This document shows, piece after piece, positions 5,107 through 27,729 of a stretch of 32,000 nucleotides of DNA (the stretch's first letter is position 1; each line of letters begins with the position of its first letter). The position numbers and the translations under genes were made by a program. The stretch covers positions 5,562,091 to 5,594,090 of the forward strand of contig CP071065.1 of NCBI GenBank assembly GCA_017164015.1, given 5' to 3'. Source of the DNA: Nostoc sp. UHCC 0702 (GTDB lineage Bacteria > Cyanobacteriota > Cyanobacteriia > Cyanobacteriales > Nostocaceae). The notes beneath the pieces are model-generated. The model was not told the origin of the DNA and ran no database searches. It saw nothing but the letters and a program-made list of their open reading frames with translations.

Positions 5107-5114
5107 GGATCAAT

Positions 5115-8390: not shown

Positions 8391-8580
8391 ACTGGGGGCT
8401 GGGAGGACTATAGTTATAACCATCCAACTTTCACTCCCAAGAATGATTTATACAGTTTTGTAAGTGTGATATAAATGCCACGTTAGTTAATAAACAGTGT
8501 AGAGTGGCAAAAACAACTATAAAGTTAATAAGCTTATTAAATAAGCATTATTCCTTCTACCTTCTAATAAGTAACAACAG

Positions 8581-11500
8581 TTGCGAAGGGGTGTAATTTT
8601 GAATACAGTTGAGTTTTTATCTTATCTTCGCAGCTTAGATATTCAAGTTTTTATTGATGGTGAAAAGTTCCGCTGTAACGCCCCTGAAGGAATTCTGACA
8701 GCAGAACTACGTGCAGAAATTCAAAAGCGTAAACCAGAAATTATTCAATTTCTACAACCATCTAATCGTACTAATAACCACAGCTTTAAACCTCTCGTAC
8801 CTATTTCCCGGTCAGAAAATCTTCCCCTCTCCTTTGCTCAACAAAGGCTGTGGTTTCTTAACCAATTAATTCCTAATAATCCTTTCTATAACATTTCACT
8901 AGCACTAAAATTAACAGGTTCCCTCAATCAAGCTGCCCTAGAGCAAACTTTTAACGAAATTGTGCGACGACATGAAGCTTTACGCACCACTTTTGTCATG
9001 CAGTCAGGGCAACCAGTTCAGATAATTAATCCTACGCTGACAATACCATTACCAATAATAGATTTAGGACAACTGCCACAAGCCGAACGAGAAATAGAAG
9101 CACGACGCCTCACTATCCAAGAAGCTCAACGTGCTTTTAATTTATCAACTGATTCGTTACTGCAAGTAAAATTGCTGCGGTTGGATGAAACACAATACAT
9201 CCTGCTGCTGACTATGCACCACATAGTCTCCGATGGTTGGTCTATTGGAGTGCTGATTAAAGAGATAGCAGCACTCTACACAGCCTTTGCCAACAATCAG
9301 CCTTCTCCTCTAGCGAAACTTACAATCCAATATGCAGACTTTGCATACTGGCAACGCCAATGGTTGCAAGGGGAAGTATTAAAAAACCAACTGAGTTATT
9401 GGCAGAAGCAATTAAACGGCATTTCTATGCTAAATCTGCCAACTGACAGACCAAGATTAGCTGTTCAAACTTACCAAGGTGCAAGGCAACCTCTGCAATT
9501 ATCAAAAAGTTTGAGCAAAGCACTTTTAACTCTCGGACAGCAAGCAGGGGTAACTTTGTTTATAACCCTACTAGCAGCATTCCAAGTTTTACTTTACCGC
9601 TATACACAACAAGAAGATATTGCTATTGGTTCACCTATTGCCAATCGCAACCGTAGCGAAATTGAAGGATTAATTGGTTTTTTTGTCAATAGCTTAGTAC
9701 TGCGTACTGACCTCTCAGGAAATCCAACTTTTCGGGAATTATTGAGTCGAGTTAAACAGGTAGCTTTAGGCGCTTATGCTCATCAAGATTTGCCTTTTGA
9801 AAAGCTGGTAGAAGAACTACATCCAGAGCGGAATTTAAATCAAAATCCGCTATTTCAAGTTGTTTTTGCGCTACAAAATGCGCCGATGTCTGCGTTAGAG
9901 TTACCTCGTTTAACTTTAAGTCCGCTACCATTAGATACGGAAACAACACGCTTTGATTTGGAGTTTCACCTGTGGGAGCCAAATACTCAAAATGGTTTAT
10001 GGGTAGATAGCTCAGAAGGAATTAGTGGTTTTGTAATTTACAGTACTGATTTATTTGATCAGGCTACTATCACCAGGATGTTAGGACACTTCCAAACATT
10101 ACTAGAAGGTATAGTTGCAAATCCAGAACAACGAATTGCACATTTACCACTTTTAAGCGAATCTGAGTTAGATCAGTTGTTGGTTCAATGGAATAATACG
10201 CAAATAGATTATCCTCAAGATAAGTGTATCCATCAGTTATTTGAGAGTGTTGCACAGCAAAATACTGATACCATAGCTTTGGTATTTGGTGAACAACAAC
10301 TCAGCTACAAAGAGTTAAATAAACGCAGTAACCAACTTGCACATTATCTCAAAAAATTAGGAGTTAAAGCTGAAGTTTTAGTTGGACTTTGTGTAGAACG
10401 CTCTTTTGAAATGGTAATCGGAATGTTGGGCATCTTGAAAGCAGGCGGAGCTTATGTGCCTCTAGACCCAAGCTATCCATCTGAACGTTTGCACTTGATG
10501 CTGAAAGATGCTCAAGTTTCAGTTTTATTAACTCACGAGCAATGGCTGGAACGTTTAGAAAATAATAATTCACAAGTAATCTGTTTAGATAAAGATTGGG
10601 AAATTATTGCTCAAGAGATTGAAGAAAATCCGACTAACGAAGTTACAGTAGACAACTTAGCTTATATCATTTATACCTCTGGTTCAACAGGAAAGCCTAA
10701 AGGTGTAGAAATTGAACATAGAGGATTGTTAAATTTAGTATTTTGGCATCAAAAAGCCTTTGCAGTTTCACATCTTGACCGAGTAACGCAGATTGCTGGG
10801 GTTGCGTTTGATGCTTGCGGTTGGGAAATTTGGCCTTACCTGAGTGCTGGAGCAAGCATCTATATTGTAGATGAGCAAATCAGGCAAATGCCTGACCATT
10901 TACGAGATTGGTTAATATCAAAAGCGATCACAATTTCCTTTCTACCAACACCTTTAGCAGAAAAAGTTTTATTATTAGATTTTCCGGAGAATGCAGCGTT
11001 ACGAATATTGCTCACAGGTGGTGATAAACTAAATCAATATCCTTTAGCTTCTCACTCTTTCCAAGTATTTAATAATTATGGCCCAACTGAGAACACAGTT
11101 GTGACAACTTCTGGGCATATTTCTGTTAACAATAAAGATAATTTAGCACCTGCAATTGGTCGCGCGATCGCTAACACGCAAGTCTACATATTAGATCAAT
11201 ATTTACAACCTGTGCCTATTGGTGTTTCAGGAGAATTGTACATCAGCGGTGATGGATTAGCACGAGGTTATTTCAACCGTCCTGATTTGACTGCTGAGTC
11301 CTTCATTTCTAATCCTTTTACTAATAAGTCAAAAGCACAACTTTATAAAACAGGTGATTTAGTTCGCTATCGATTAGACGGCGACATGGAATTTTTAGGT
11401 CGCCTCGACGACCAGGTAAAAATTCGTGGCTACCGCATTGAGTTGGGAGAAATTGAAGCAGTACTCAGTCAGCATCCAGCAGTGCAGCAAACTGTAGTCA

Positions 11501-13308
11501 TAAATCGTGAAGATGAACAGGAAAAACGCCTAGTAGCTTATGTAGTACCAAAAACCGAATATAACAGCGAACAGGAAAATATGCAATTAATGCAATTGCA
11601 GAATGAGCAAGTTTTGCAATGGCAGATGCTCTATAACGAAACTTATAATCAACCTGCTAATTCCGATCCAAAATTGAATTTTATCGGCTGGAATAGTAGT
11701 TACAGCAATCAGCCAATTCCAGCAGAACAGATGCGTGAGTGGGTGAATAACCAAGTCGAGCATATTTTGGCTTTACAACCCAAACGAGTGTTAGAAATTG
11801 GTTGTGGAACAGGTTTAATTCTGTTTAGGGTTGCACCTGACTGCACAAAATATTGTGGCACAGACTTTTCCTCAGTTTCACTTAACTATATTCAGCAGCA
11901 GTTACAAAACCAAGAAATGCCGCAGGTAACGCTGTATCAGCAAATGGCTACTGATTTCGAGAAAGTAGAAACAGCAGCTTTTAATGTAGTAATTATCAAC
12001 TCAGTTGTACAATATTTTCCTACTATTGATTATCTGATTCGTGTATTAGAAGGTGCTGTGCAGGCAACTGCACCGGGTGGCTTTATCTTTATAGGAGATG
12101 TGCGTAGTTTGCCACTTTTGCAAGCTTTCCATGCATCAGTGCAACTGTATCAAGCTGAACCTTCCCTTACACGGTTCGAGTTGCAGCAACGGGTAAAAAT
12201 GCAAATATTTCAAGAAACAGAGTTAGTCATTGACCCAGCTTTTTTTACTGCAATCAAGCAACACTTTCCACAAATTAATGATGTACAAATTCAACTGTTG
12301 CGGGGTAAACATCACAATGAGTTAACTCAGTTTCGTTACAATGTAATTCTTACTATTGAGGGCGAAACTGTTAACAATACTGAAGATTATCCAGTTTCAA
12401 ATTGGTCTGAAAATAATTTAACACTGTCAGCAGTGCATCAGTTATTAATTGATAATCAGCCAGAAATATTAAACATTATAAATGTACCTAATGCGCGGGT
12501 AATGTCAGCAGTTAAAATAGCAGAATTGCTATCAGATGTAGAAGGTTTTAAAACTGTAGCTGAAATACGTAAAGCTTTACAAGAACTCGAAAATTTCGGA
12601 GTAGAACCAGAAGATTTTTATGGGCTGAATGTACCTTATAGGGTTGATATTACCTGGTCACATTCAAGTATTGAAGGACATTATGATGTGGTTTTTATAC
12701 GGCAAGATAGAGTAGCTAAGAAAACTATTTTTCCACATAGCACGGCTGACTCTCGGACTTGGCAATCTTACGCCAATAATCCTCTACAAGCCAAAGCAGC
12801 ACGTAAGTTAGTGCCGCAGTTACAGACTTACATCACACAAAAACTGCCTGAGTATATGATGCCATCAGCTTTTGTAATATTGGAGTCTTTACCTCTAACA
12901 GCTAATGGTAAAGTCAATCGCCGCGCCTTAAGAGCATTGCATGATGCAATCAAACCCCAATTGACTGAAAATTACATTGCACCGAGAACTCCTATTGAAC
13001 AAGTGCTGGTGAAAATTTTTGCTGAGCTTTTGGGACTTAAACGTGTAGGAATTTATGACAATTTCTTTGAATTAGGTGGTCATTCATTACTAGCAACTCA
13101 GCTTGTCTCTAGAGTGCGCGACACCTTGCACGTGGAGTTACCTTTGCGTAGCGTATTTGAGGCATCGACAATTGCAGAATTATCTCAGGTGGTAGAAAGT
13201 TTTAAAGGGAGCAATGCTCAAAGTCAAGCCCCGATTTTAGCACCACTATCGCGTGAAAGTCGCCGCATTAAGCTATCTTCTTTAAAGGAACAGAACAAAG
13301 GTTCTTAG
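8581..13308 (+). CDS. Non-ribosomal peptide synthetase, docking-C-A(methyltransferase insert)-T (predicted N-methyl-Leu module)
   Basis: 1575-aa ORF. The start is uncertain: TTG 8581 in the ORF track, with an alternative in-frame TTG at 8599 giving MNTVEFLSYL. N-terminal TubC-type docking domain, then C (HHIVSDGWS). A domain: LAYIIYTSGSTGKPKGV, NNYGPTENT, GELYISGDGLARGY, YKTGDLVRYRLDGDMEFLGRLDDQVKIRGYRIEL. A roughly 450-aa insert with SAM motif VLEIGCGTG lies between A8 and A9 (LPEYMMP). PCP: FFELGGHSLL. Stachelhaus code DAWFLGNVVK is the canonical Leu code. Confidence 0.95.
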   Translation: MRRGVILNTVEFLSYLRSLDIQVFIDGEKFRCNAPEGILTAELRAEIQKRKPEIIQFLQPSNRTNNHSFKPLVPISRSENLPLSFAQQRLWFLNQLIPNNPFYNISLALKLTGSLNQAALEQTFNEIVRRHEALRTTFVMQSGQPVQIINPTLTIPLPIIDLGQLPQAEREIEARRLTIQEAQRAFNLSTDSLLQVKLLRLDETQYILLLTMHHIVSDGWSIGVLIKEIAALYTAFANNQPSPLAKLTIQYADFAYWQRQWLQGEVLKNQLSYWQKQLNGISMLNLPTDRPRLAVQTYQGARQPLQLSKSLSKALLTLGQQAGVTLFITLLAAFQVLLYRYTQQEDIAIGSPIANRNRSEIEGLIGFFVNSLVLRTDLSGNPTFRELLSRVKQVALGAYAHQDLPFEKLVEELHPERNLNQNPLFQVVFALQNAPMSALELPRLTLSPLPLDTETTRFDLEFHLWEPNTQNGLWVDSSEGISGFVIYSTDLFDQATITRMLGHFQTLLEGIVANPEQRIAHLPLLSESELDQLLVQWNNTQIDYPQDKCIHQLFESVAQQNTDTIALVFGEQQLSYKELNKRSNQLAHYLKKLGVKAEVLVGLCVERSFEMVIGMLGILKAGGAYVPLDPSYPSERLHLMLKDAQVSVLLTHEQWLERLENNNSQVICLDKDWEIIAQEIEENPTNEVTVDNLAYIIYTSGSTGKPKGVEIEHRGLLNLVFWHQKAFAVSHLDRVTQIAGVAFDACGWEIWPYLSAGASIYIVDEQIRQMPDHLRDWLISKAITISFLPTPLAEKVLLLDFPENAALRILLTGGDKLNQYPLASHSFQVFNNYGPTENTVVTTSGHISVNNKDNLAPAIGRAIANTQVYILDQYLQPVPIGVSGELYISGDGLARGYFNRPDLTAESFISNPFTNKSKAQLYKTGDLVRYRLDGDMEFLGRLDDQVKIRGYRIELGEIEAVLSQHPAVQQTVVINREDEQEKRLVAYVVPKTEYNSEQENMQLMQLQNEQVLQWQMLYNETYNQPANSDPKLNFIGWNSSYSNQPIPAEQMREWVNNQVEHILALQPKRVLEIGCGTGLILFRVAPDCTKYCGTDFSSVSLNYIQQQLQNQEMPQVTLYQQMATDFEKVETAAFNVVIINSVVQYFPTIDYLIRVLEGAVQATAPGGFIFIGDVRSLPLLQAFHASVQLYQAEPSLTRFELQQRVKMQIFQETELVIDPAFFTAIKQHFPQINDVQIQLLRGKHHNELTQFRYNVILTIEGETVNNTEDYPVSNWSENNLTLSAVHQLLIDNQPEILNIINVPNARVMSAVKIAELLSDVEGFKTVAEIRKALQELENFGVEPEDFYGLNVPYRVDITWSHSSIEGHYDVVFIRQDRVAKKTIFPHSTADSRTWQSYANNPLQAKAARKLVPQLQTYITQKLPEYMMPSAFVILESLPLTANGKVNRRALRALHDAIKPQLTENYIAPRTPIEQVLVKIFAELLGLKRVGIYDNFFELGGHSLLATQLVSRVRDTLHVELPLRSVFEASTIAELSQVVESFKGSNAQSQAPILAPLSRESRRIKLSSLKEQNKGS
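8599..8760 (+). other. TubC_N-type (beta-hairpin) NRPS N-terminal docking domain
   Basis: NTVEFLSYLRSLDIQVFIDGEKFRCNAPEGILTAELRAEIQKRKPEIIQFLQ matches the recalled TubC N-terminal docking pattern (..L..L...G..L...G..L....P.G.L...L...I...K.E.I..L). Confidence 0.7.
11470..12840 (+). other. SAM-dependent methyltransferase domain embedded in the A domain (between core motifs A8 and A9)
   Basis: The insert begins after KIRGYRIELGEIE (ends about 11460) and ends before LPEYMMP (about 12844). It contains FIGWNSSYSNQPIPAEQMREWV and the SAM-binding VLEIGCGTG (11788-11814), typical of NRPS N-methyltransferase domains. Confidence 0.8.
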
Positions 13309-13652: not shown

Positions 13653-14168
13653 ATGAGCATGTATCAATTTCCACAATATTTCTGGCGTTGCGCCCTGGTA
13701 GTTCTTCTAGCATTAACTCTATATGGATGGGGTGCAAAGTCAGCACATGCGCTGCTGAGGCAACATCATGATTCTCCAAGCGTTTTGCGCTATCATTCGC
13801 AAGTCTCTATCAAGGATGAAAAAGGATATGCTTGGCAAGTATTGCTGTTCAAGCAGAATTACAATAATCCAATTAAAGAATTAAGGTTGCGGTTGGTTGG
13901 GTTTCCTGGTGTGGTTGAAGTCACTCACCCCCAACCATTAGAAATTGAAACAGCAGGTGGAAAATTGCTTTTGGCATCGGATGCCTACGCTTTGGCTGCA
14001 CCCGCCCTGAATGTGGGTGAATATGAATTAACTGATGTCTTACCCAAACTACCAACTACGGATGCCCTTAAACTCCATGTACCAACTAAGAACAAACAGC
14101 CATTAATTCTCAGCATCCCCAACTCTGTAGTAACTGAGTGGCAATGGCTAGTGACAGAAATTGATTAA
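13653..14168 (+). CDS. Secreted hypothetical protein (conserved cyanobacterial type, possibly DUF3122)
   Basis: 171-aa ORF with an N-terminal signal peptide (CALVVLLALTLYGWGAKSAHA). The family assignment is from memory only. Confidence 0.6.
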   Translation: MSMYQFPQYFWRCALVVLLALTLYGWGAKSAHALLRQHHDSPSVLRYHSQVSIKDEKGYAWQVLLFKQNYNNPIKELRLRLVGFPGVVEVTHPQPLEIETAGGKLLLASDAYALAAPALNVGEYELTDVLPKLPTTDALKLHVPTKNKQPLILSIPNSVVTEWQWLVTEID

Positions 14169-14441: not shown

Positions 14442-14500
14442 GACTCAATTTCAAGGTTTCAAGGTTTCATCTATCATGCCGATTTTATTTATCTGTTGAT

Positions 14501-15022
14501 CTACTTAATTAACTGTTGCAAATAATCTTCCACAATTTGGAATGCTTCAGGACTGTTACCATAACTAGGGTTACTTCTATAAAATACTTTTTTCTGTTTC
14601 TTGCCTAAACATACTGAAATAGAATAAGGATAGTACCTTTTATTAGGCGGCGCACCATACTCTGTTGCTAAATTCATAAACCCACTTGATTTAATCAATT
14701 TTTTCAGTTTATCCAACTGATTGTTAGTAAGTTTTTTATTTCTTGTCTGAGTAGTGACTTGACTAGGTATTGCAGATATAGGATTATTGTATGATTCTAT
14801 TTTTTCACTCCAAATTATTGACAAATTTTTGACTGCAATCGAAACAGTAGGTGCAGAATATGTCAGCACAAAATTTTCTGTTTGATTCGTACATTCACTT
14901 TGAGCTAAATTATCGACTATCATCAACGAAGTAGGAACAGAACTCAAACTGTGCTGAAGCAAATTTTGCCCTATATTAGAAAATTCAGAAATGATTGCTA
15001 GGGAAAATAAAAAAATTTTCAT
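14501..15022 (-). CDS. Hypothetical protein with N-terminal signal/hydrophobic segment
   Basis: 173-aa ORF, AT-rich, N-terminus MKIFLFSLAIISEF. No motif recognised. Confidence 0.5.
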   Translation of the reverse strand: MKIFLFSLAIISEFSNIGQNLLQHSLSSVPTSLMIVDNLAQSECTNQTENFVLTYSAPTVSIAVKNLSIIWSEKIESYNNPISAIPSQVTTQTRNKKLTNNQLDKLKKLIKSSGFMNLATEYGAPPNKRYYPYSISVCLGKKQKKVFYRSNPSYGNSPEAFQIVEDYLQQLIK

Positions 15023-15071
15023 ATTAATATGTAAGGTAATTCCAGAAAATAAATTATTCCGTTTGAAGTTG

Positions 15072-15134
15072 TTGACTATTGACTATTGACTATTGACTGT
15101 TGACTACTGACTATTGACTATTGACTATTGACTG
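15072..15134. repeat. Heptanucleotide tandem array (TTGACTA x9, STRR-like)
   Basis: Nine contiguous 7-nt units (variants TTGACTG, CTGACTA) lie in the 125-nt spacer between CDS 14501..15022 and CDS 15148..16089. Confidence 0.9.
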
Positions 15135-15147
15135 TAAACCGTTTTCA

Positions 15148-16089
15148 TCAAAAACGATTAGATGCTAATTTATTCAACCATTTCGATGCTTCGTTGTACG
15201 ATTTGAACTGGCTTTCACTGGCACGAAACTCTTTTGTATGAACCATTCTTCTCCCCTGAACCCACTTCGCGCCGTGGTACTTGTGCAACAATTCGTGATA
15301 CAACACAAACTCAACTACAAATTCCGGTACATTAACATCATCAAGAGTCAAACTGATCACTACCCTATCTCTAGCTGACTCATAGTGTCCGAACTTACGG
15401 TAAGTGTTAATTCGGCTCCATGCTAGGCGTGGTTTGGCAAGACTTGCCGCGAAATATTCATGGTTAACTTTATGAAATAATTCATCTAGGTTATAAAACT
15501 TTCCTTGTGGATTTTCTGCCACTACCTCAGCAATCAAATCAAGCTCTAACACTAGATTAGTGTATTCTTCTGTACTGACAAATGACCTGATCAGTTGTGT
15601 ATTCTGTTGATTTTTGCCAAAAAGTGCAGATTCTACTAATGCTTGCAATACTACTTTTGGTGCATTTATAAATCCCTCATTAATCATGATATTGGCTGTG
15701 CTATTAGACCTTTTCCCCTGATATAGCCCAGCTAAATTAGTTATGCCAATCATTACTTGAAGTGAGTTTTGACCACGTTCATTCAGGATTTGTTTGGCAG
15801 TTGACAACACACAGCCACTAGTTCTCAGGTGGAGTTCTAAATACTGTTCATTTGTTAAAAACTTGATCCATGAGTAGATTCTACGGGATGAAGGAGTCAG
15901 ATTTGCTGGCGTTGCTTGTTGGGTAGAACATATTTTTTCAATTGTTGTTGCTGTTGTAATTAAATTTTGATTTAATTGTTGTATTTGAATTGATTCATAA
16001 TTATGTTTTGCAGCTAAATTAAAAATTTTATGCAATATCTTATTTTGTTGCACTTTGATGTTTTTTAAGCGAATACCCTCAACGTTCAT
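15148..16089 (-). CDS. DUF45/YgjP-like (M48-related) putative zinc metallohydrolase with a long N-terminal extension
   Basis: 313-aa ORF. The C-terminal region RLAWSRINTYRKFGHY...VISLTLDD...FVVEFVLYHELLHKYHG...HTKEF...WLNKL fits the recalled DUF45 pattern, including the HExxH motif (HELLH). Confidence 0.6.
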   Translation of the reverse strand: MNVEGIRLKNIKVQQNKILHKIFNLAAKHNYESIQIQQLNQNLITTATTIEKICSTQQATPANLTPSSRRIYSWIKFLTNEQYLELHLRTSGCVLSTAKQILNERGQNSLQVMIGITNLAGLYQGKRSNSTANIMINEGFINAPKVVLQALVESALFGKNQQNTQLIRSFVSTEEYTNLVLELDLIAEVVAENPQGKFYNLDELFHKVNHEYFAASLAKPRLAWSRINTYRKFGHYESARDRVVISLTLDDVNVPEFVVEFVLYHELLHKYHGAKWVQGRRMVHTKEFRASESQFKSYNEASKWLNKLASNRF

Positions 16090-16142
16090 TTGAGTTTTGT
16101 AACTATAAAGGAATAAACAAGTTCTTACATTTCAATATTACT

Positions 16143-16286
16143 AGGACTTACGCAAGTGTCATATTTTTTTCGTCTGGGCAGTACTGGGTCAAAAGTCAAT
16201 AGTCCAAAAAATCTTGCTTAAAGACTATTGACTATTGACTATTGACTGCCATCACAGTAAATCTGTGTGCCAGTTGCGTAAGTCCT
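16143..16286 (-). mobile_element. MITE copy A (TIR AGGACTTACGC), inverted relative to copies B and C
   Basis: The ends are aggacttacgcaagtgtcat ... gtgtgccagttgcgtaagtcct. The reverse complement aligns by eye with the copies at 23652 and 24553. It contains an internal (GACTATT)n heptamer tract (about 16223-16248). Confidence 0.8.
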
Positions 16287-16360
16287 GATTACTATTTGAT
16301 GTAAGATGGTATTCTTTGTATCAAAAGCCACAGTTAAGACAAAAACTAAATTTCAAGTGT

Positions 16361-16384
16361 AGGAGCAATTCATGAATTGCTCCT
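16361..16384 (-). terminator. Perfect palindromic hairpin just downstream of the 597-aa CDS stop
   Basis: AGGAGCAATTCATGAATTGCTCCT lies 15 nt beyond the stop at 16399. No clean T-run follows on the minus strand, so terminator function is tentative. Confidence 0.4.
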
Positions 16385-16398
16385 GGGTGAATTTGGTA

Positions 16399-18192
16399 TT
16401 AGTGATCTACTTCACTGGGGTGAGGCTCAAAAAATGGAATACCAAATCCTTGAGTTGCTAACTTTTTGGCGATCGCTTGCAAGTTGATCATCTCCTGACG
16501 GGCAGAGACAATATTGTTGGCATCTTCCATATCTCCTTTTTCATAAGCTGCTTGCAAGTAACCGAGAAGTCTGTGGTAGCCATCCAAGGCTTCCTTGGCA
16601 TCTGGATGATCACTAGGTGCTGGCGTAATATTTCTCAGGTATGCTGGTCTAGCCCCATTAGCTGGCGACCCATCTTGATAAACACGTAACACCGTTTCGA
16701 TTTCGCGGAACTTGCTAAAATGCTCCATACCATCGGCAATGATTCGCCCAGCTAGTTGATAGAGAGTGTCTGGATATTGGGGTTGACGAAGTGTCGCCAG
16801 TACCCGTGAATACTGACCATCTATACCACCACTGGGGGCTTCCACGGCGATAAAGTCAGCCAAGGCTTTTCTATTGAGAGGACGCAGTTGTCGGGGACGA
16901 GTATGACCGTTAGCTACAGGGATGCGACTGGCAACTTCTAAAGCCGGGCCATAAGCTTTTTTCGTCAGTCCTGCGTGGTCAAGTTCCCAAAGCAATTGAT
17001 TCACCCAACGCAGGTGACGCATTTCACTCACAGCGACCAACAGCAACTCATGACTGACGAAAATTAGGTCATTGCGGAGTGTTGGCCAGATGTTCACATC
17101 TGCCTCTTCAGGAGCAACTAAGGAGTAAAGGGCGTAAAGGTATTCTAAACAAAGAACATGTTCTAAACCAGCCAAATCGTACAACTTAGTTGCTAATACC
17201 TCTGGATTTTTGTATGGATTAGCATCATCAGGTGCTGGTGGTCGATATATCTGGGAGATTTCTTTGCCCCCAAGCACAACAGCCAACTCTTGCCAGCGTT
17301 GGCTGATTTCGTAGTGATCCATTTGGAAGGGGCGGTTTTGTTGGGGAGTCCCCAAAGCACCAGCACGACCGCCTAGGGAACGATCCGATCGCAGCCAATC
17401 AATGGGTGTATTCGCCCGGTCGGGGTCGGCTGAGGCACCAGAGGGCAGTGTCGCCTCACCGAGAGTATCTTCGCCTAAAACTATATCTGGGTGATTGGAA
17501 GCCCAGTAGAAACAGGCACAGTCACGGAAATCATGCTGCCAAGGAGAACAAAGACTCTGGGTTAACTCTCCGGGCTGATAGACTTGTCCGATAACGCCGC
17601 TTTGAGAATCAACAAAAACCCGACGCCAGCCGTTCAGTTCAAGTTCAGCGGTGGATGGAGGATTGTCTTCACCGCCTGCTTGGCGTTGCCAGAGTTTGAT
17701 TTTCACTAAACCAGGCTCTAAAGAACGCACCAAACGCCAGACTATTAGACCATCCAAAGGAACTTTTTTCCCTTCTGCATCTAGTTGAAATAGGGGTATG
17801 TTCTTGCCCCCTTGTTCCACAGCATCGAGATACCATGTACCTGTAGATAGGCTATTACCTGAGTCTCCTTGAAGTGCTGCCCGTAGTTGTGTCGCCGCCG
17901 TAATTAATTCTGGATTGCCTGCATGGAAAGCCGGGTTTAATTCAGGATCGCTCGATTCTATATTTAGTAGTAATGCACCACCACGTAAAGCATCGGGGTT
18001 AGAACTATCGCTTTCAGAAACAAACTCGAAAACTAAACCAGGAAAAAAGCGACGGTCAAGGTTGCGCTGGTCAAATTCTAACCCAGGATAGCAGTTGCCA
18101 ACGCCGCTTTCTAAGCGTGTGGTGGCTGGATTGCCCACCACTTGTCGGTCAGACTTAGCTGTGAGGTTACGGGGAAAAATTTTCTCGCTCAT
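16399..18192 (-). CDS. Fusion protein: LodA/GoxA C-terminal-like domain (N-terminal half) + ferritin-like domain (C-terminal half)
   Basis: 597-aa ORF whose ATG is 5 nt after the radical SAM stop. Residues 207-235, PGELTQSLCSPWQHDFRDCACFYWASNHP, match the recalled LodA C-terminal signature (PGDLT..M.CPWQADF..C ... YWWPPQSP). Residues about 332-597 contain LEHVLCLEYLYALYSL and VAVSEMRHLRWVNQLL, as in the Pfam Ferritin-like family PF12902. Confidence 0.8.
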   Translation of the reverse strand: MSEKIFPRNLTAKSDRQVVGNPATTRLESGVGNCYPGLEFDQRNLDRRFFPGLVFEFVSESDSSNPDALRGGALLLNIESSDPELNPAFHAGNPELITAATQLRAALQGDSGNSLSTGTWYLDAVEQGGKNIPLFQLDAEGKKVPLDGLIVWRLVRSLEPGLVKIKLWQRQAGGEDNPPSTAELELNGWRRVFVDSQSGVIGQVYQPGELTQSLCSPWQHDFRDCACFYWASNHPDIVLGEDTLGEATLPSGASADPDRANTPIDWLRSDRSLGGRAGALGTPQQNRPFQMDHYEISQRWQELAVVLGGKEISQIYRPPAPDDANPYKNPEVLATKLYDLAGLEHVLCLEYLYALYSLVAPEEADVNIWPTLRNDLIFVSHELLLVAVSEMRHLRWVNQLLWELDHAGLTKKAYGPALEVASRIPVANGHTRPRQLRPLNRKALADFIAVEAPSGGIDGQYSRVLATLRQPQYPDTLYQLAGRIIADGMEHFSKFREIETVLRVYQDGSPANGARPAYLRNITPAPSDHPDAKEALDGYHRLLGYLQAAYEKGDMEDANNIVSARQEMINLQAIAKKLATQGFGIPFFEPHPSEVDH

Positions 18193-18197
18193 AATAA

Positions 18198-19520
18198 TTA
18201 TGTGTGTGGGCGATCAAAAATATCAGGACGTTCAGACAAAGCGCGATCGTAATAACGCAGGCAGTAATCCAGCCAGCCACGGATGTAATCGCAACCATCA
18301 CGCCCGGAGGCGATAACTTCAGCATGACAACCGCCACCGCATAAATAACGTGCCCAACAAGAACGGCAAGGTTCTTGGCGGTCAACTAAACGAGCTTGCA
18401 AAAACTCTTCACGCGCTGTTTGAGAAGGGCCATCAGCAAATGTTCCCAAGGCAAAACTATCTTGGTCGATAGTGCGGTGACAGGTAAAGTAATTACCTTC
18501 GGCACTCACAGATACATAACTAGCTGCGGCACCGCATGGTAAAGGGCGACAGGAACCACGGTGAATTTCCCGCAAAGCGATCGCTAAATTAGAAAAGCGC
18601 AAGTCTTCACCTGTCAGCAGGCATTGCCATTCAGCTTCAGCCACCCGGATCATTTCTTGCAGGAAAATTGCCCAGTCTTCTGAGGTCAAAGCTAGTTTCG
18701 GGTCAGGGGATGTTCGCAGAGGACTCACGCCAATTTCTTTAAACCCGATGGCACTCAGGGCTGCAACTCGTTCCAAAACTCGCAGGTCGGTGCGAGTCAC
18801 TGTACAACGTGCTGCAATCCTCGCTTGTCCCGGATCTGCCAGTAAGGGGCGCAGATGCTCCACAACTGTAGCAAAGCTGCCTGTACCACGGTTATTAGTT
18901 CTGTGTAAATCATGCACAGTCGCGCCACCATCAATGCTCACAGACACAGCAAAAGCATTGTCCCGCAACAGTTGTATATCAGACTCAGTAATTAAAGTCC
19001 CATTGGTGGTGATAGAAAAACCTACCGAGATGCCACGACGAGCCGCCAGTTCATTGGCATATTCCACACTCCGGTAGAGTGTGGCTCGATTCAGAAATGG
19101 CTCACCCCCAATAAAACCGATGGTGACTCGTCGTTTCTGTGCCTGTTCAATCAGTCGCTTGATGGTCGTCAAAGCGACTTCTACAGACATTAAACGTTGC
19201 CGTCCTCCAAATCGGCCTTCATCAGCATAACAATAGCTACATGTCAAGTTGCAGGATTGGGCTAAATTCAGAGAGATGGCAGATGGTTCTTGGTCGGCGT
19301 GCCAAGCACTAACGGCTGGTTCAGCAGAAGATACACTAGCACGTAATTCGGCGATCGCTTCTGGCTGGTTATCTGCTAATGCTGCAAAGAAATCTGGGCT
19401 AACTGCAAACAGTTGGGAGTTGCCCATCAAAAATACCAATGGTGTTTCACCTGGTAGCAAGTGAAACCAAGGCTGGGGAATCTCAACAACCGCCACAGAG
19501 TTGGCAAAACTAGATTGCAT
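18198..19520 (-). CDS. Radical SAM / SPASM-domain maturase (anSME / QhpD-like)
   Basis: 440-aa ORF whose ATG is 3 nt after the upstream TAG, with AGGAG 8 nt upstream. Radical SAM motif CNLTCSYC at 19230-19253. GGEPF motif present. SPASM motifs: CGAAASYVSVSAEGNYFTC and CRSCWARYLCGGGC (CX2CX5CX3C, 18327-18368), plus downstream Cys residues. Confidence 0.9.
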   Translation of the reverse strand: MQSSFANSVAVVEIPQPWFHLLPGETPLVFLMGNSQLFAVSPDFFAALADNQPEAIAELRASVSSAEPAVSAWHADQEPSAISLNLAQSCNLTCSYCYADEGRFGGRQRLMSVEVALTTIKRLIEQAQKRRVTIGFIGGEPFLNRATLYRSVEYANELAARRGISVGFSITTNGTLITESDIQLLRDNAFAVSVSIDGGATVHDLHRTNNRGTGSFATVVEHLRPLLADPGQARIAARCTVTRTDLRVLERVAALSAIGFKEIGVSPLRTSPDPKLALTSEDWAIFLQEMIRVAEAEWQCLLTGEDLRFSNLAIALREIHRGSCRPLPCGAAASYVSVSAEGNYFTCHRTIDQDSFALGTFADGPSQTAREEFLQARLVDRQEPCRSCWARYLCGGGCHAEVIASGRDGCDYIRGWLDYCLRYYDRALSERPDIFDRPHT

Positions 19521-19523
19521 ATA

Positions 19524-21197
19524 CTACTCCTGTGACTCCAAACGACGCGCCACTACTCTGGCTACATGCTGGCGAACTGGTGTGGCCACTGTAGGCGGTG
19601 GGGCAACTTGACCGGGAATCAAAGTTAATTCTGCTGGGGCTTGGGCACGCAGCTTGTCCACAAACCCTAGAATCTGATTATACTGCCGCCTTGTCAGAGA
19701 TAACGCTGTGGCATCCGAGTCACGCATGTAAGGAGGCATCCGCATATCATGGACGCGATCGCGTTGGATACGGGCATCTCGATGACGAGCATCAGATGTT
19801 TCCGGCGGCTGTTCACTGAGTTCTGCCACCACACCGTAGGGAGGACGTAACAAATACTCGACTCGCACGCCGAAGGTACGTAGAAAATCTGTGAGGTTTT
19901 CCACATCTGTGAGTGAAGCATGAACGCTGGCGGCGACGGCGGAGTAAGGTAAGCGATCGCGGGCTACAGATTGACTAATCAAATCTGGTACCTTATCTGC
20001 ATAAGGCTTGTCTTCGGATGTCATACTACCAAAATCAGTGCGGGGTGGCGCTTCTGCAACAGGTTCGGGTATGCCACCACGGGCATTCTCATTCAATGCT
20101 CGCGATCGGTTAGCATCCAAATTGAGTAAACTTAATGTCTCGAACACGCGTTGGAAGAGATCGGCAATTTCTGAGGTGGTCAGCTGTTCATCATCCAACG
20201 CCGGAACGGGTAAGTCACGGTCTGAGAGTTCGTCAGCCAAGGACAAGAAAGGACGGCGGTCGGGAGAAAAGTCTGGCGGCCCGGAGAAAAATCGAGCTAT
20301 TGCCCTAAATCGTTCTCCACCAACTACTACAAAAGCTGTAATGATGCCATCACAAGTATCATCCACAACACCCCAAGAGCGATCGCTTGCTACTGGAATC
20401 TCTGCACTCGCTCCATCGTAGGTATCATAAGGATCAGGATTGTTAAAACGTCTGAAATCGGCATCGTAATTTGACCATGCTGAATTAGGATTTAGGATGC
20501 GATTTTGTTCTAGAACGATTTCATGTATGCGTCTAGTGCCTGGTGCGGGTGCAGCAGTAGCCGTTGGTGGCCCATACACATGTCCGTAAGCAGGTGTATA
20601 CCGCAGACGGAGCGTACCCAAGTTTACCCCCATTTCCTCAGCATCCACTGGGCGAATCACTTGAATGTCCCCTAGAGGTATGGGTTTATCGGGGAAAACT
20701 AGAGGTTCCGAATTCACGCCGCGTGGACTTGTCGCCAGCAGTGGGTAGCGTTGATAATCGTTAGCACGAACTTCTATCCTGGCACTAAAACCACAGGTCG
20801 GGTCGCCAGTGCGTCGTGCTGCTTTTAAATTCGCTGCTTCCACCACATAGGAAACAGCATCAAGGGGTGCTTTTAATTCTTGCAGAAGTTTACTTGTTAA
20901 GGGAACTTCTTCTATTGAGCTATCGGCATGTTGTACTCGCGCCCACAACTCAAAAAATGGCGCCACTGGTCGAAAAAGGTTTTGATCTTTAAAGTGAATA
21001 ATACTAGGTAGATAAGGGCGTATTGAACCATCGGGTTGGATTTCAAAGCTAGTTGCTGGCTCAATAATTGTCTTAGCTGCACCATGTAGGGTTGGGTCTT
21101 CCTGCCAGGTGAAACTCTCTAGGGGGATACTGCTGCCACCTAGGCGGGCAATAGCCATCGGTGGATAGAAAAAGATTTCAAGCAATCGAGGCTGCAC
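19524..21197 (-). CDS. LodA/GoxA N-terminal-like protein (first part of a split LodA-like protein)
   Basis: 557-aa ORF with a GTG start preceded by GGAGG (21203-21207, 5-nt spacing). YPPMAIARLGGS (21132-21164) resembles LodA HPSIGVARLGN. VVDDTCDGIITAFVVVGG...FFSGPPDFSPD (20259-20363) resembles LodA DDISDG...VVGSPDFAPE. MPPYMRDSDATALSLTRRQY resembles LodA LPLMP...L..TQ. The LodA sequence is recalled from memory. Confidence 0.8.
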   Translation of the reverse strand: MQPRLLEIFFYPPMAIARLGGSSIPLESFTWQEDPTLHGAAKTIIEPATSFEIQPDGSIRPYLPSIIHFKDQNLFRPVAPFFELWARVQHADSSIEEVPLTSKLLQELKAPLDAVSYVVEAANLKAARRTGDPTCGFSARIEVRANDYQRYPLLATSPRGVNSEPLVFPDKPIPLGDIQVIRPVDAEEMGVNLGTLRLRYTPAYGHVYGPPTATAAPAPGTRRIHEIVLEQNRILNPNSAWSNYDADFRRFNNPDPYDTYDGASAEIPVASDRSWGVVDDTCDGIITAFVVVGGERFRAIARFFSGPPDFSPDRRPFLSLADELSDRDLPVPALDDEQLTTSEIADLFQRVFETLSLLNLDANRSRALNENARGGIPEPVAEAPPRTDFGSMTSEDKPYADKVPDLISQSVARDRLPYSAVAASVHASLTDVENLTDFLRTFGVRVEYLLRPPYGVVAELSEQPPETSDARHRDARIQRDRVHDMRMPPYMRDSDATALSLTRRQYNQILGFVDKLRAQAPAELTLIPGQVAPPPTVATPVRQHVARVVARRLESQE

Positions 21198-21305
21198 ACA
21201 AACCTCCGATAATAAATACTTGGATACAACCGAGGCTAGCGTACATTTTCTATATTTAATTCAATACTTCATATAAATTGTGTTAAGTATTTTTCCAGTG
21301 TTAAG
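21198..21305. promoter_or_regulatory. Divergent promoter region between the LodA-like operon and the flavoprotein gene
   Basis: 108-nt AT-rich spacer between two divergently oriented start codons. Individual -10/-35 elements were not resolved. Confidence 0.4.
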
Positions 21306-22625
21306 TTGCAACTTGTGAATAGTAGTAATTGGCAAAATAATGTAGCGATCGCTGGGGTAGGATTGGCAGCTGCGGCCGTGGCCATGCGGTTGCTTAGTTG
21401 CGGCTTTCGTCCAGTGCTGCTGAGTCGTGGACTGCCCCACATCAAAGGCGTTGAGGCAATTCCTGAGTCAGCCTTGCGGCTATTTGATGCCCTTGATTTG
21501 ACGCCAGCTTTGCAAATGGCAGGCGGTTTCTGGGTGGAGGGATTTGAAAACGCTTGGCAAGGTAACGAATCTGTAATTAGACCAGGAAGGTATATACATG
21601 TTGAGCGATCGCTCTTAGCCCAAGCTGCGATCGCTATGGTGATGCAGCAAGGTGCAGCTATGGTATCTAGTAATACCATTGCCCCACTGGTTGTAGAAAA
21701 AGCATCAGTGCGTGTGATCATAGATGGTGTAGAACAACGATTTGCCGCAGCGATTGATGCCACTGGACGTTCAGCCCTCTGGTCACGACCTATCGAACGG
21801 CATACTAGGGAGATGGCGCAGATATTTAGTACTTTTGGTGATGAAAGTTTACTCCGTGGACGCATAGCTCAATTTTCGGGCGGTTGGGCTTATCATCTTG
21901 GTTTGCCGGATACCATGACAGTTGGTGTTGTCAGTCCGCACCATACTAGTTATGAGCAAGTTCAAGAGCTAATTAGAGAAAATTTGTGTCTTCCTGCTAA
22001 GCAATTACACGTAGTAGGGCGACGACCAGTTTCTCCACAGTGGGCAGAAGCACCTATTCAAGACCGCAGGCTGGCTGTGGGAGATGCAGCACTAGCATAC
22101 AGCCCGATCGCTGGACAGGGAATCCGTTTTGCTCTATCGAGTGCTTTAGCTGCTGCTGCTGTGGTTCGCACCTGGCGAGATTCACCAGCAGATGCAGATT
22201 ACGCGACGCAGTATTACCACGAACTGGTAAACGCAGAAAAGTTGCGACATCTATCTAATATCAATTCGTTATCTAGCAATCAGGCCCTACCTACCAACCC
22301 AGCACAACCATCTTTTAATAATGCTGCCCTGCCATCTAGAGTTTATTACACTGGACAAACCAAGATGACAGGACTTTACATCAACGGATTGATCAAATGC
22401 ACAGAAGCGATCGCTTTACCTGATGGTAACATAGTGCGCTGGCTGGGTAACTTTGACCTATTGACCATGCGAGACTATTGCACCAACCCACTTGCGACTA
22501 CCAGTTTAATCGAGCAATTGCATCGGCAGCAATTAGCTGAAGCACAAGCCCTATACTTAATTCGCTGGTGTTTAGAACACAACATTATCTCAACCGCAGA
22601 TATAAAAGGGAATTGGGACAACTAA
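21306..22625 (+). CDS. FAD-dependent monooxygenase, LodB/GoxB/QhpG-like, with an extra C-terminal domain
   Basis: 439-aa ORF with a TTG start in the track (alternative GTG at 21315). Dinucleotide-binding VAIAGVGLAAAA (GxGxxA). DATGRSA motif. GD motif LAVGDAALAYSPIAGQGIRFAL. A low-complexity linker (SSNQALPTNPAQPSFNNAALPS) is followed by a domain of about 95 aa. Confidence 0.8.
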   Translation: MQLVNSSNWQNNVAIAGVGLAAAAVAMRLLSCGFRPVLLSRGLPHIKGVEAIPESALRLFDALDLTPALQMAGGFWVEGFENAWQGNESVIRPGRYIHVERSLLAQAAIAMVMQQGAAMVSSNTIAPLVVEKASVRVIIDGVEQRFAAAIDATGRSALWSRPIERHTREMAQIFSTFGDESLLRGRIAQFSGGWAYHLGLPDTMTVGVVSPHHTSYEQVQELIRENLCLPAKQLHVVGRRPVSPQWAEAPIQDRRLAVGDAALAYSPIAGQGIRFALSSALAAAAVVRTWRDSPADADYATQYYHELVNAEKLRHLSNINSLSSNQALPTNPAQPSFNNAALPSRVYYTGQTKMTGLYINGLIKCTEAIALPDGNIVRWLGNFDLLTMRDYCTNPLATTSLIEQLHRQQLAEAQALYLIRWCLEHNIISTADIKGNWDN

Positions 22626-22741: not shown

Positions 22742-23542
22742 CTACAATTCCATCACACTATCCAGACCCCGTTTCAATCCTACAAAAGAACTCACTTGGC
22801 GAATAGCTAATAAAGTTCCTTTTACATAAGGTTCTGCACTACTTCCCGCTTCATGTCGAATTATCAGCTTTTCCTCCCCTAGACCAAAAATTGCTTCCAC
22901 CGCTAAAGTATAACCAGGTAAACGCAACGAATGGACTTGCGTCCCATTGAGTGTTGCACCTCTACTTTCTTTTGCACCTTGAGTGTTTTCTATGGGATTG
23001 TATGGGATTGGCTGTTTAACTCGCCCTAATCGAGAAGCAAGTTCCCTGGCTGTCCCACTGGGAGCATCCACTTTCTTTTCAGAAGCGTAATCTACAATTT
23101 CCCAAATGCTCGTGTACTTGGCTGCTAATTCGGCAAAACGTTGCAGAAGCACTGCTGTAATTGCAAAGTTGCCAGCTGCTAAAACACCTACTTGGCGCTT
23201 AATTGCCTGTTCATTGATTTCTACAAAGTCTTCATCTGTAAGTCCAGAAGTACCAATGACTACATGGATACCGTTTTCGATAGCTTCTAGGACGTTGCTT
23301 TTAACTACATTTGGTTTAGTGTAGTCAACTAAAACATCACACTTTTTAATTAAAGCTTCTTTGACAGAAGCACTGATGATCACATCTGATGATGTCTCCA
23401 CAATTACATCGCCCAATCTACTGCCAGCATGAGTTCTGGAGATTGCTCCCACAAGATTCAAGTCTTGTTCAGTGTCAATCGCTTTGACTAAGGAACGCCC
23501 TACCCATCCTGTCGCACCAGCTAAACAAACATCTATTGCCAT
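22742..23542 (-). CDS. dapB: 4-hydroxy-tetrahydrodipicolinate reductase (DapB) family protein
   Basis: 266-aa ORF. N-terminal GATGWVGR nucleotide-binding motif. EKKVDAPSGTA and IIRHEAGS match the recalled DapB signatures (H..K.DAPSGTA; ..TH.A). It may be a paralogue rather than the housekeeping copy. Confidence 0.7.
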   Translation of the reverse strand: MAIDVCLAGATGWVGRSLVKAIDTEQDLNLVGAISRTHAGSRLGDVIVETSSDVIISASVKEALIKKCDVLVDYTKPNVVKSNVLEAIENGIHVVIGTSGLTDEDFVEINEQAIKRQVGVLAAGNFAITAVLLQRFAELAAKYTSIWEIVDYASEKKVDAPSGTARELASRLGRVKQPIPYNPIENTQGAKESRGATLNGTQVHSLRLPGYTLAVEAIFGLGEEKLIIRHEAGSSAEPYVKGTLLAIRQVSSFVGLKRGLDSVMEL

Positions 23543-23810: not shown

Positions 23811-24458
23811 TCAGCTGTTAAGCTTTTCGATTTGCTGCTGGAAGTAGTCTCGCCAACCTGTGGGCAAAGCCTCAACTTGTACGACGCGGTGTAACAGTTC
23901 TAGATCATTTGTTTCGCGTGCATAAAGTCGGGTAATATCAGCAACAGTGACATTGTTTGAGTCTCGACTGATTAACGACAAAGTATCACCATTTCCTACT
24001 TTACCCTCTTGCAGCACTGAAAAGTAGAACCCCGTTAAGCGGCTATCTAAAAACTGTTTAACTATATCAGCACGTCCAAACTTGATTCCGAGTTTATAAC
24101 AAGGCATTCGAGGTTGAGTCACCATTACCTCTGCGCTACCGATCGAGAAGCGATCGCCAATATTAACCTGATCTTCTAACAGCCCAACGGTAGTGAAGTT
24201 CTCACCAAACATTCCCCAGGACAAATCCATGTCAGGTAACTTGCGCCGCCAATAGTCGTAATGCTCGAATGGATAAGCATAAACTGCTTTGTCTTTGCCT
24301 CCGTGGACGCTCAAATCAGCTTGTCTATCCCCATCTAAATTGAGCGATCGCATCATCACCCGTTCCTCAACTGGTTCTTTAAAAATCCCAGTTGTAACTG
24401 TTTTGCCTTTCCAAAGTACTTCACGGGGAAGTCCTACATTGACTGAAATAACTTGCAT
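23811..24458 (-). CDS. MOSC domain-containing protein (YiiM-like)
   Basis: 215-aa ORF. VGLPREV..KGKTVTTGIFKEPV, ADLSVHGGKDKAVYAY and GENFTTVGL...IGDRF.IGSA...VTQPRMPCYKL match the recalled YiiM/MOSC pattern, including the conserved Cys. Confidence 0.8.
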   Translation of the reverse strand: MQVISVNVGLPREVLWKGKTVTTGIFKEPVEERVMMRSLNLDGDRQADLSVHGGKDKAVYAYPFEHYDYWRRKLPDMDLSWGMFGENFTTVGLLEDQVNIGDRFSIGSAEVMVTQPRMPCYKLGIKFGRADIVKQFLDSRLTGFYFSVLQEGKVGNGDTLSLISRDSNNVTVADITRLYARETNDLELLHRVVQVEALPTGWRDYFQQQIEKLNS

Positions 24459-27455: not shown

Positions 27456-27729
27456 TGTTATTCTCCTAAAGGTTTGACGCTTTACTCAAAAGTCACCCCT
27501 TTAACCTAAGTCCGTCATCCAGTCTTCTCTTCATACCAAAGGCACAGCTAACTGTTAATTCTGACTGTCAAATAAAATACACAACTTGGTGAGCAATTAT
27601 CAACTAGTGATTTTTTACACAAAATAATGCTGTTCGGGAATGCCACCAAACTCTTACGCCTTCACGATGACGGCCTGATGAGCGAATCAGGTAAAGTAAA
27701 GATAAGTAAAGAAGGTGCTTAGAACCAAA

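Follow-up and report, generated by a model that had tools for sequence, protein, structure and literature searches.

Why should a large bacterial protein annotated only as a "hypothetical protein" carry three cysteines and two tryptophans within 16 residues? The protein in question, of 597 amino acids, is encoded on the minus strand at 16399-18192 (597 residues plus stop) of a 32,000-nucleotide stretch of the genome of Nostoc sp. UHCC 0702 (contig CP071065.1, positions 5,562,091 to 5,594,090), referred to here as the window, and it corresponds at 100% identity to JYQ62_24545. The Cys/Trp cluster spans residues 207-230, PGELTQSLCSPWQHDFRDCACFYW (17503-17574, minus strand). A first-pass annotation had marked it as a candidate cofactor or cross-link site, and its coordinates and codons for these residues matched exactly when the minus-strand open reading frame (ORF) was re-checked: P207 lies at 17574-17572, C215 (TGT) at 17550-17548, W218 (TGG) at 17541-17539, C225 (TGT) at 17520-17518, C227 (TGT) at 17514-17512 and W230 (TGG) at 17505-17503. 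To our knowledge, only two enzyme systems contain cysteine tryptophylquinone (CTQ), namely the LodA oxidases and quinohemoprotein amine dehydrogenase (QHNDH), whose small gamma subunit is QhpC, and their maturation routes differ. We propose, with a probability of roughly 0.55, that the motif is the loop in which the cofactor forms in an as yet undescribed type of tryptophylquinone enzyme, one that would combine a split LodA scaffold, a QhpC-like loop braced by thioethers and a ferritin-like dimetal domain. The conservation of the motif, its match to LodA and its linkage to partner enzymes, all read from sequence, lend support to the cofactor or cross-link site that was originally suggested.

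The protein has 5 Cys and 11 Trp in total, and three of the five Cys fall inside residues 207-230. A 16-residue segment with at least three Cys and at least two Trp turned up in 111 of 200,000 shuffles of the 597-residue protein (5.6e-4). A tally of positions, an alignment to LodA and the cross-link map of QhpC extend the motif to C215-x5-D221-x2-D224-C225-x-C227-x2-W230-x5-D236 (17485-17550, minus strand), for which a pseudo-repeat, [C-x2-W-x5-D]-C-x-[C-x2-W-x5-D], is an alternative reading.

No other block of the protein's family is as well conserved as the motif. More than 1,700 protein clusters matched in a word-indexed search, and an exhaustive search of 50%-identity representatives gave 674; C-x2-W-x6-C-x-C-x2-W was kept by all cluster representatives at that level that covered the region, the sequences without it being fragments. 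In an alignment of 117 homologues that were 51 to 85% identical, the five residues defining the cluster (C215, W218, C225, C227 and W230) were invariant, as were G208, E209, Q212, S213, S216, P217, H220, D221, F222, R223, D224, Y229, A231, N233, H234, P235 and D236. Indeed, none of the homologues examined that cover the region departs from C215, W218, D221, C225, C227, W230 and D236, down to about 30% identity and across at least seven phyla. A tally of 271 sequences gave D221 and P217 in 271 of 271 and D236 in 270 of 271, and position 224 was Asp in 258 and Glu in 12 (acidic in 270 of 271). The Cys and Trp residues singled out in the first-pass annotation thus hold, but that list had missed the invariant acidic positions D221, D224 (Asp or Glu) and D236, which are candidate acceptors of cross-links.

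Three invariant Cys with several His and Asp within 22 residues might also build a metal or structural site, in which C215, C225 and C227, together with H220, H234 or Asp, would bind Zn, Cu or Fe-S while the maturation enzymes encoded nearby act elsewhere. The first hydroxylation of the cofactor Trp of LodA has been reported to depend on copper (PMC7876137), and AlphaFold2 (AF2) cannot fold the motif segment alone, which is common for metal sites. We nevertheless consider a metal site quite unlikely. In the 271-sequence tally many homologues have Y, W, N, S or F in place of H220 and R or K in place of H234, whereas the two Trp and the three Asp positions do not drift; further evidence that bears on this explanation is given with the comparisons below.

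The connection to CTQ enzymes came from LodA. A phmmer search of the PDB with an 89-residue fragment aligned residues 207-230 to LodA residues 497-520, EPGDLTKRMACPWQADFFNC, with an E value of 0.34 and in the register W218 = W509, D221 = D512 and C225 = C516, the last being the Cys of the LodA cofactor. The CTQ of LodA is formed from C516 and W581, 65 residues apart, in agreement with the spacing of roughly 65 given in the first-pass annotation, and the two residues align in all members of a 2015 survey of LodA-like proteins (PMC4417212). An Asp of the D512 type near the cofactor is conserved in all tryptophylquinone enzymes (PMC7876137). The Pfam model LodA_C, which has a cut-off of 25 bits, scored 22.8 bits on the whole 597-residue protein and 25.4 bits on a 73-residue motif fragment, the match spanning profile positions ~110-145 of 149. 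LodA_C matched 26 of the 32 full-length members and all 12 of the diverse fragments in the same register, four of the fragments at or above the cut-off. The match is marginal, and at that strength the segment of LodA that carries the CTQ Cys and the active-site Asp appears to be present in the motif. Neither the whole 597-residue protein nor a profile of the 117 homologues found LodA in the PDB, where they returned only a chance cadherin match and a weak bacterioferritin match, and a 31-residue motif query gave no match there.

In common with LodA, then, the protein has a C-P-W-x-x-D-F-x-x-C segment, a LodA_C match on the motif and an adjacent flavoprotein gene, and the alignment of the motif with the CTQ segment tells against a metal site. 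The position of the candidate cofactor Trp is different, falling 5 residues after the Cys and not 65. Going on from C225, the first conserved Trp is W230, five residues away, and the next is W266; the stretch between does not align to the W581 region of LodA, so that the 65-residue spacing is absent from the window protein. We infer that W230 is the equivalent of W581; each is preceded by an aromatic residue (Y229 and W580, respectively). Also unlike LodA, the motif contains two extra invariant Cys and invariant Asp acceptors.

A compact arrangement of this kind is known in QhpC. That subunit carries three thioethers (C7-E16, C27-D33 and C41-D49) and a CTQ formed from C37 and W43; its conserved active-site Asp is D33, and the residue before W43 is W42 (PMC8172795, PMC7876137). 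We compared QhpC with the window protein by its published residue numbers and not by sequence alignment. Counting the residues between, QhpC reads C27 -5- D33 -3- C37 -3- C41 -1- W43 -5- D49, and the window protein reads C215 -5- D221 -3- C225 -1- C227 -2- W230 -5- D236. By residue number, the two proteins have the same order, Cys-Asp-Cys-Cys-Trp-Asp, and agree in three of the five spacings, with a span of 22 residues in QhpC and 21 in the window protein. The shared spacings are C-x5-D, D-x3-C, which is also that of LodA, and W-x5-D, and an aromatic residue stands before the cofactor Trp in both (W42-W43 and Y229-W230). In contrast, the Cys-Cys pair is separated by one residue and not three, the Cys-Trp pair by two and not one, and there are three Cys where QhpC has four. 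Moreover, the motif lies inside a 597-residue enzyme or a fusion of ~1150 residues, whereas QhpC is a ~9-kDa subunit with a 28-residue leader. A site of three Cys ligands would leave the invariant Trp and Asp residues, in their QhpC-like order, unexplained. A match of the Pfam QhpC model PF08992 (QH-AmDH_gamma) to the motif was not counted as evidence; a spurious NUP210 Ig match was equally strong.

Two candidate maturation enzymes are encoded near the motif. Directly upstream of the 597-residue gene lies a gene for a radical S-adenosylmethionine (SAM)/SPASM enzyme of 440 residues (18198-19520, minus strand), matched by the Pfam models Radical_SAM and Fer4_12. Its four best NCBIfam matches, QhpD (TIGR03906, 263 bits), PapB (253 bits), the nif11-type (223 bits) and the SCIFF maturase (222 bits), are all thioether forming. 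A divergently transcribed flavin-dependent monooxygenase (439-residue ORF, 21306-22625, plus strand) had QhpG as its best NCBIfam match (NF049967, 130 bits), ahead of GoxB (44.8 bits) and LodB (40.5 bits). The maturases of the window therefore resemble QhpD and QhpG more than LodB, and on this basis we regard QhpC, not LodA, as the closest analogue of the compact motif. Both window enzymes score below the equivalog cut-offs of the qhp models. In Bradyrhizobium sp. ORS 111, the counterpart flavoprotein reached 298 bits, above the QhpG cut-off of 240, and the radical SAM enzyme also matched QhpD best, at 309 bits against a cut-off of 453. The flavoprotein ORF as listed begins with TTG (21306-21345, plus strand), and the QhpG profile match runs from residue 13, just before a GxGxxA dinucleotide-binding motif, so that translation may in fact begin slightly downstream. 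A 198-residue ORF antisense to the 5' part of this gene (21269-21865, minus strand), with a high content of Ala, Ser and Cys, is more likely a shadow ORF than a true gene.

These partners are not chance neighbors. A scan of one genome per species with two strict peptide patterns returned 186 relatives, and the locus counts given here are for the best 80 of these, with partner genes counted within 10 kb. A radical SAM gene was present in 77 of the 80 loci, and in all three without it a contig end falls at its expected place; a QhpG-like monooxygenase gene was present in 67 of 80. A third partner, described below, was encoded in 76 of 80, and most loci without it or without the flavoprotein gene were short or cut by a contig end. 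The 80 loci come from Cyanobacteria, Acidobacteriota, Myxococcota, Alpha-, Beta- and Gammaproteobacteria, Actinomycetota and Planctomycetota, as well as Nitrospira, and the family spreads over at least seven phyla of soil, freshwater and marine bacteria. The flavoprotein and radical SAM/SPASM partners that had been named from the window alone therefore co-occur with the motif protein across phyla. The radical SAM partner is apparently obligatory, unlike the situation with LodA, and a metal site with maturases acting elsewhere leaves this linkage to QhpD- and QhpG-type enzymes unexplained.

What would the radical SAM enzyme act upon? Its closest described relatives offer a guide. QhpD makes the Cys-to-Asp/Glu thioethers of QhpC (PMC7876137), and enzymes of the PapB and SCIFF type join Cys sulfur to the β- or γ-carbon of Asp, Glu or Thr (PMC8172795). 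If the window enzyme behaves like QhpD, PapB and the SCIFF maturases, it would be expected to make Cys-to-Asp/Glu thioethers. The first-pass annotation had proposed the flavoprotein for Trp hydroxylation and the radical SAM enzyme for Cys-Trp or thioether cross-linking; on this analogy, the Cys-Trp bond would not be made by the radical SAM enzyme. In its scores the window enzyme is close to the ranthipeptide and SCIFF maturases (PapB and CteB types); their substrates, however, are short leader peptides, and the substrate here is likely a full-size protein, as is the case for QhpD acting on QhpC. The 310-bp gap downstream of the 597-residue gene contains no precursor-like or Cys-rich small ORF that could serve as an alternative substrate, and no conserved small gene was seen in the related loci whose genes were listed. 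The three minus-strand genes of the cluster lie 3 and 5 bases apart. Given this abutment and the lack of a precursor-like ORF downstream, the substrate is probably the 597-residue protein itself.

A different target for the radical SAM enzyme would open another explanation, which is that a LodA-style CTQ, made from C225 and W230 or W218, is formed by the flavoprotein alone, with C215 and C227 free or in a disulfide. The radical SAM enzyme would then modify C34 with E39 or D41, the 557-residue partner protein, or an unlinked peptide or small molecule. LodA and GoxA do need a flavoprotein only (PMC4417212, PMC7876137), and the N-terminal part of the 597-residue protein offers a second conserved Cys-plus-acid segment, NC34-x-PGLE39-x-D41, which like the motif has a predicted local distance difference test score (pLDDT) below 50. 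C34 is the other well-conserved Cys, present in 226 of 259 sequences; it is missing, however, in 13% of homologues, where S, T, D or A takes its place, yet the radical SAM gene occurs at every related locus uncut by a contig end. The single invariant Cys of the 557-residue family lies in a DDxCDG motif common to LodA and GoxA, two enzymes that do without a radical SAM partner. The flavoprotein is QhpG-like, and the known QhpG substrate is a Trp inside a ring made by a radical SAM enzyme; QhpG dihydroxylates the unmodified Trp43 inside the Cys41-Asp49 ring, in a ternary complex with QhpD (PMC7876137). Finally, no radical SAM partner is mentioned in the survey of LodA families of the canonical type, with their 65-residue spacing (PMC4417212). 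We judge maturation by the flavoprotein alone to be unlikely.

The third partner would give the proposed enzyme the rest of its scaffold. It is a protein of 557 residues encoded at 19524-21197 (minus strand), which we call the N protein. GoxA and LodA were its only sequence matches in the PDB (E values of 0.0095 to 0.97), through a DDxCDG...PPD(F/Y)AP motif that it has in common with them, and no Pfam domain was found in it at E values up to 0.1. LodA_N (PF17990) matched 16 of 56 relatives of the 557-residue protein, the best with an E value of 7e-4, and a Nordella homolog in which this protein is joined to the motif domain (P0410) scored 27.8 bits, above the LodA_N cut-off of 26.3. The 557-residue protein is likely a remote LodA_N homolog, although the window protein itself falls below the threshold. 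An AF2 model of a fused homolog (P0123), built from 25 sequences and thus of limited depth, had a pLDDT of 74.3 and a predicted template modeling score of 0.72; its best fold match in the PDB was LodA (E value of 1e-7, probability of 1.0, 448 aligned columns), followed by 3hl1. Taken together, the fusions, the LodA_N score of P0410 and the fold match of P0123 argue that the 557- and 597-residue proteins are a split remote LodA homolog to which a ferritin-like domain has been added. LodA itself differs in this respect, the scaffold here being divided over two genes and fused to a ferritin-like domain, and its overall sequence similarity to LodA being too low for the full-length window proteins to reach the LodA cut-offs of Pfam. 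Fungal lodA-like genes also adjoin genes for PF12902 ferritin-like proteins (PMC4417212).

Within the 597-residue protein, the motif (M) domain comprises approximately residues 1-325 (17218-18192, minus strand); it would equal the C-terminal, CTQ-bearing part of LodA, with LodA_C matching at 202-236. The ferritin-like (F) domain comprises approximately residues 326-597 and the stop codon (16399-17217, minus strand), the boundary between the two having been placed approximately from the AF2 secondary structure. Pfam PF12902 matched the protein with 45.7 bits against a cut-off of 22.3, and the F domain appeared in the AF2 model as a confident C-terminal four-helix bundle with a fold match to 3hl1 (E value of 2e-5, TM-score of 0.61 normalized to the target). 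Its putative dimetal-carboxylate ligands, E344, E350, E390-x2-H393, E451 and H491, are invariant in the 117 sequences, and metal binding by this domain is suggested by that ligand set. The monomer AF2 model of the 597-residue protein gave only ferritin-like folds as PDB fold matches. Residues 211-219 and 226-234, in the motif, and residues 24-41 were left unplaced by AF2 despite their extreme conservation. Such segments would fit a conformation that is set by cross-links or by a partner protein, a modeling outcome that we do not count as evidence.

The N-terminal part of the M domain contains a second highly conserved segment, residues 4-41 (18069-18183, minus strand), with the pattern IFPRNLTA..GNP..R.E..V.NC.PGLE.D; the conserved run goes on as.RNLDRRF and reaches approximately residue 53 (RNLDRRFFPGL). 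In the AF2 model of the 597-residue protein, the pLDDT of residues 1-14 and 24-41 is below 50. C34, replaced in 13% of homologues, is followed by the invariant E39 and D41, which may make a further Cys-acid pair.

The route by which the proposed tryptophylquinone enzyme would be made can be laid out at the level of residues. The scaffold would consist of the 557-residue LodA_N-like protein and the first ~325 residues of the 597-residue protein, which are LodA_C-like, with the dimetal domain fused at the C terminus. In a first step, the QhpD-like radical SAM enzyme would link the sulfurs of C215 and C227 to methylene carbons of Asp. The C227-to-D236 bond would close a ring around W230, and C215 would be joined either to D221, with the QhpC-like spacing, or to D224, with the spacing of the pseudo-repeat; the latter pairing would account for the restriction of position 224 to Asp or Glu. 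The QhpG-like flavoprotein would then hydroxylate the ring-enclosed W230. In a third step, C225, the presumed counterpart of LodA C516 and QhpC C37, would bond to the oxidized indole to give cysteine tryptophylquinone, with D221 (LodA D512, QhpC D33) serving as the conserved active-site Asp. The mature enzyme would oxidize an amine or amino acid, and the dimetal domain may act in electron or oxygen handling or in biogenesis. The pseudo-repeat, [C-x2-W-x5-D] twice over, allows ring enclosure and modification of both W218 and W230; were both modified, the cofactor chemistry would be of a kind not yet seen.

Several observations weigh against this proposal. The LodA link at the motif consists of short, near-threshold matches (E value of 0.34 in the PDB; 22.8 bits against 25), and the pairing of W230 with LodA W581 is without statistical support, the aligned segment scoring -3.3 bits. 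The fold match of the P0123 model to LodA has a TM-score of 0.27, and most of the motif has a pLDDT below 50 in both AF2 models, monomer and fused. The Pfam QhpC model PF08992 matched 2 of 12 fragments, with E values of 0.048 and 0.29 (14.1 and 11.6 bits against a cut-off of 25). The window radical SAM enzyme scored 263 bits against the QhpD cut-off of 453, and the window flavoprotein 130 bits against the QhpG cut-off of 240. The three invariant Cys could equally bind metal. We know of no precedent for a Cys-Trp link from i to i+5, the spacing being i+6 in QhpC and i+65 in LodA. What we observed comprises the sequence and how it is conserved, its homologies and the linkage of the genes, and it is from these that we infer the chemical steps, the pairing of residues, the substrate and what the ferritin-like domain does.

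The organization of the related loci provides further insight into how the parts belong together. Two layouts predominate. One is that of the window, N - radical SAM - M+F with the flavoprotein alongside, and the other is N - M+F - radical SAM - flavoprotein. The N, M and F modules are fused or split in at least five arrangements. Single N+M+F chains of ~1100-1250 residues occur in P0123, P0133, P0149, P0155 and further fused proteins; Nordella has a separate F gene followed by an N+M chain of ~740 residues (P0410); Rhizobium leguminosarum pRL9b4 has N, a stand-alone M of 263 residues and a divergent F of 909 residues; and an F+N fusion also occurs. Many loci of the second layout include two genes that are not in the window. 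One encodes a ~1100-residue SAM-domain/adenylate-guanylate cyclase/AAA_16/TPR protein (41 of 80 loci, and also the Nordella locus L087), and the other a BBE-like flavin adenine dinucleotide (FAD)-linked oxidase (FAD_binding_4 + BBE; 31 of 80); in locus L030 they lie at 14497-17880 and 6778-8304, respectively. Upstream of the fused N+M+F gene of locus L003, at 2355-6339, are genes for a second ferritin-like protein (732 residues) and a di-heme oxidoreductase (PF06537, DHOR), which could be an electron-transfer partner.

A radical SAM enzyme, a flavoprotein and a protease would together resemble the toolkit of ribosomally made peptides that are modified post-translationally (RiPPs), and a sedolisin/S8 peptidase gene does follow the cluster in the Acidobacteria-type locus L001 (13078-14850), with an S8 peptidase and a tyrosinase-family gene near the cluster of R. 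leguminosarum pRL9b4 (L088; 10907-12388 and 13430-14803). The large protein could on that account be a scaffold from which a small molecule derived from Cys and Trp is excised, comparable to pyrroloquinoline quinone or the Trp-derived pyrroloquinoline products of peptide scaffolds. We find this very improbable, in that no peptidase is encoded at the cluster in the window or in most loci, the motif is internal and not terminal, and the whole N+M+F unit of ~1150 residues is conserved, with homology to the LodA fold and a full set of dimetal ligands, which suggests an enzyme. The S8/sedolisin peptidases recall the QhpE protease as well; they are inconsistent neighbors, near the cluster in only these two of the loci seen.

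The remainder of the window holds other genes. Three consecutive nonribosomal peptide synthetase (NRPS) genes occupy 964-13308 (plus strand) and encode proteins of 1380 residues (condensation-adenylation-thiolation-thioesterase, C-A-T-TE), 1091 residues (C-A-T) and 1575 residues (TubC_N-docking-C-A-MT-T, MT being methyltransferase), with the thioesterase-bearing module encoded first. A link between these and the quinoprotein cluster was judged unlikely, as no NRPS gene was found in the related loci listed or scanned. Between them and the cluster lie, on the minus strand, a 313-residue ORF at 15148-16089 with a HELLH (HExxH) motif and no Pfam match and a 173-residue ORF at 14501-15022 with a weak DUF6438 match. 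Both were rejected as cluster members, having counterparts in 0 of 80 related loci. Flanking genes encode a DUF3122 protein (13653-14168, plus strand), a DapB-like reductase (22742-23542, minus), a MOSC/YiiM protein (23811-24458, minus), a DUF892 protein (26892-27455, minus), a HEAT-repeat (PBS lyase-like) protein (27715-28410, plus) and an M50 peptidase (29174-30661, minus).

In light of these comparisons, the compact-motif family is not a member of either known CTQ family. It falls outside the LodA family in that it lacks the 65-residue Cys-Trp spacing and a LodB/GoxB-type flavoprotein as its only maturase, the cluster having a QhpG-like flavoprotein, with 130 bits for QhpG compared with 40-45 bits for LodB and GoxB, together with a radical SAM gene. 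The 2015 survey, in which C516 and W581 align throughout and no radical SAM partner is mentioned (PMC4417212), likewise places it outside the described LodA groups. It falls outside the QHNDH family in that the motif resides in a 597-residue protein and not in a small gamma subunit of ~80 residues (mature) with a leader, and in that the diheme QhpA, β-propeller QhpB, QhpE protease and QhpF exporter were absent both from Pfam and NCBIfam scans of the window ORFs and from the called genes of four related loci. In a plasmid search with the QhpG-like protein, the 2 records inspected out of 64 that matched were not qhp operons, one being a member of this family and the other an unrelated locus. Pfam has no model for the N protein, and NCBIfam has none that claims the window radical SAM enzyme or the 597-residue protein. 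Members go by the database names "hypothetical", "ferritin-like domain-containing", "radical SAM protein", "FAD-dependent monooxygenase" and "tryptophan 7-halogenase", and the motif proteins seen bore no annotation beyond "hypothetical" or "ferritin-like". Full-text searches of the literature on tryptophylquinone with radical SAM or ferritin-like proteins, on tryptophylquinone since 2022, on LodA, QhpD, QhpG and GoxA, and on PF12902 gave no description of such a system.

The family represented in the window thus joins a LodA-type scaffold, maturation of the QhpD/QhpG type and a ferritin-like dimetal domain. Tentatively, and at somewhat less than even odds, we suggest that it forms a third tryptophylquinone class, with a doubly braced CTQ and a dimetal-carboxylate domain, and possibly an evolutionary bridge between the 9-kDa gamma subunit of QHNDH and the 80-kDa LodA oxidases. 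If the proposal is true, these proteins would offer a new context for a protein-derived cofactor and one more case, beyond QhpD acting on QhpC, of a radical SAM enzyme cross-linking a full-size protein and not a peptide. They would also provide a residue-level hypothesis that relates the cofactor sites of QHNDH and LodA, and a new oxidase or dehydrogenase activity to seek.

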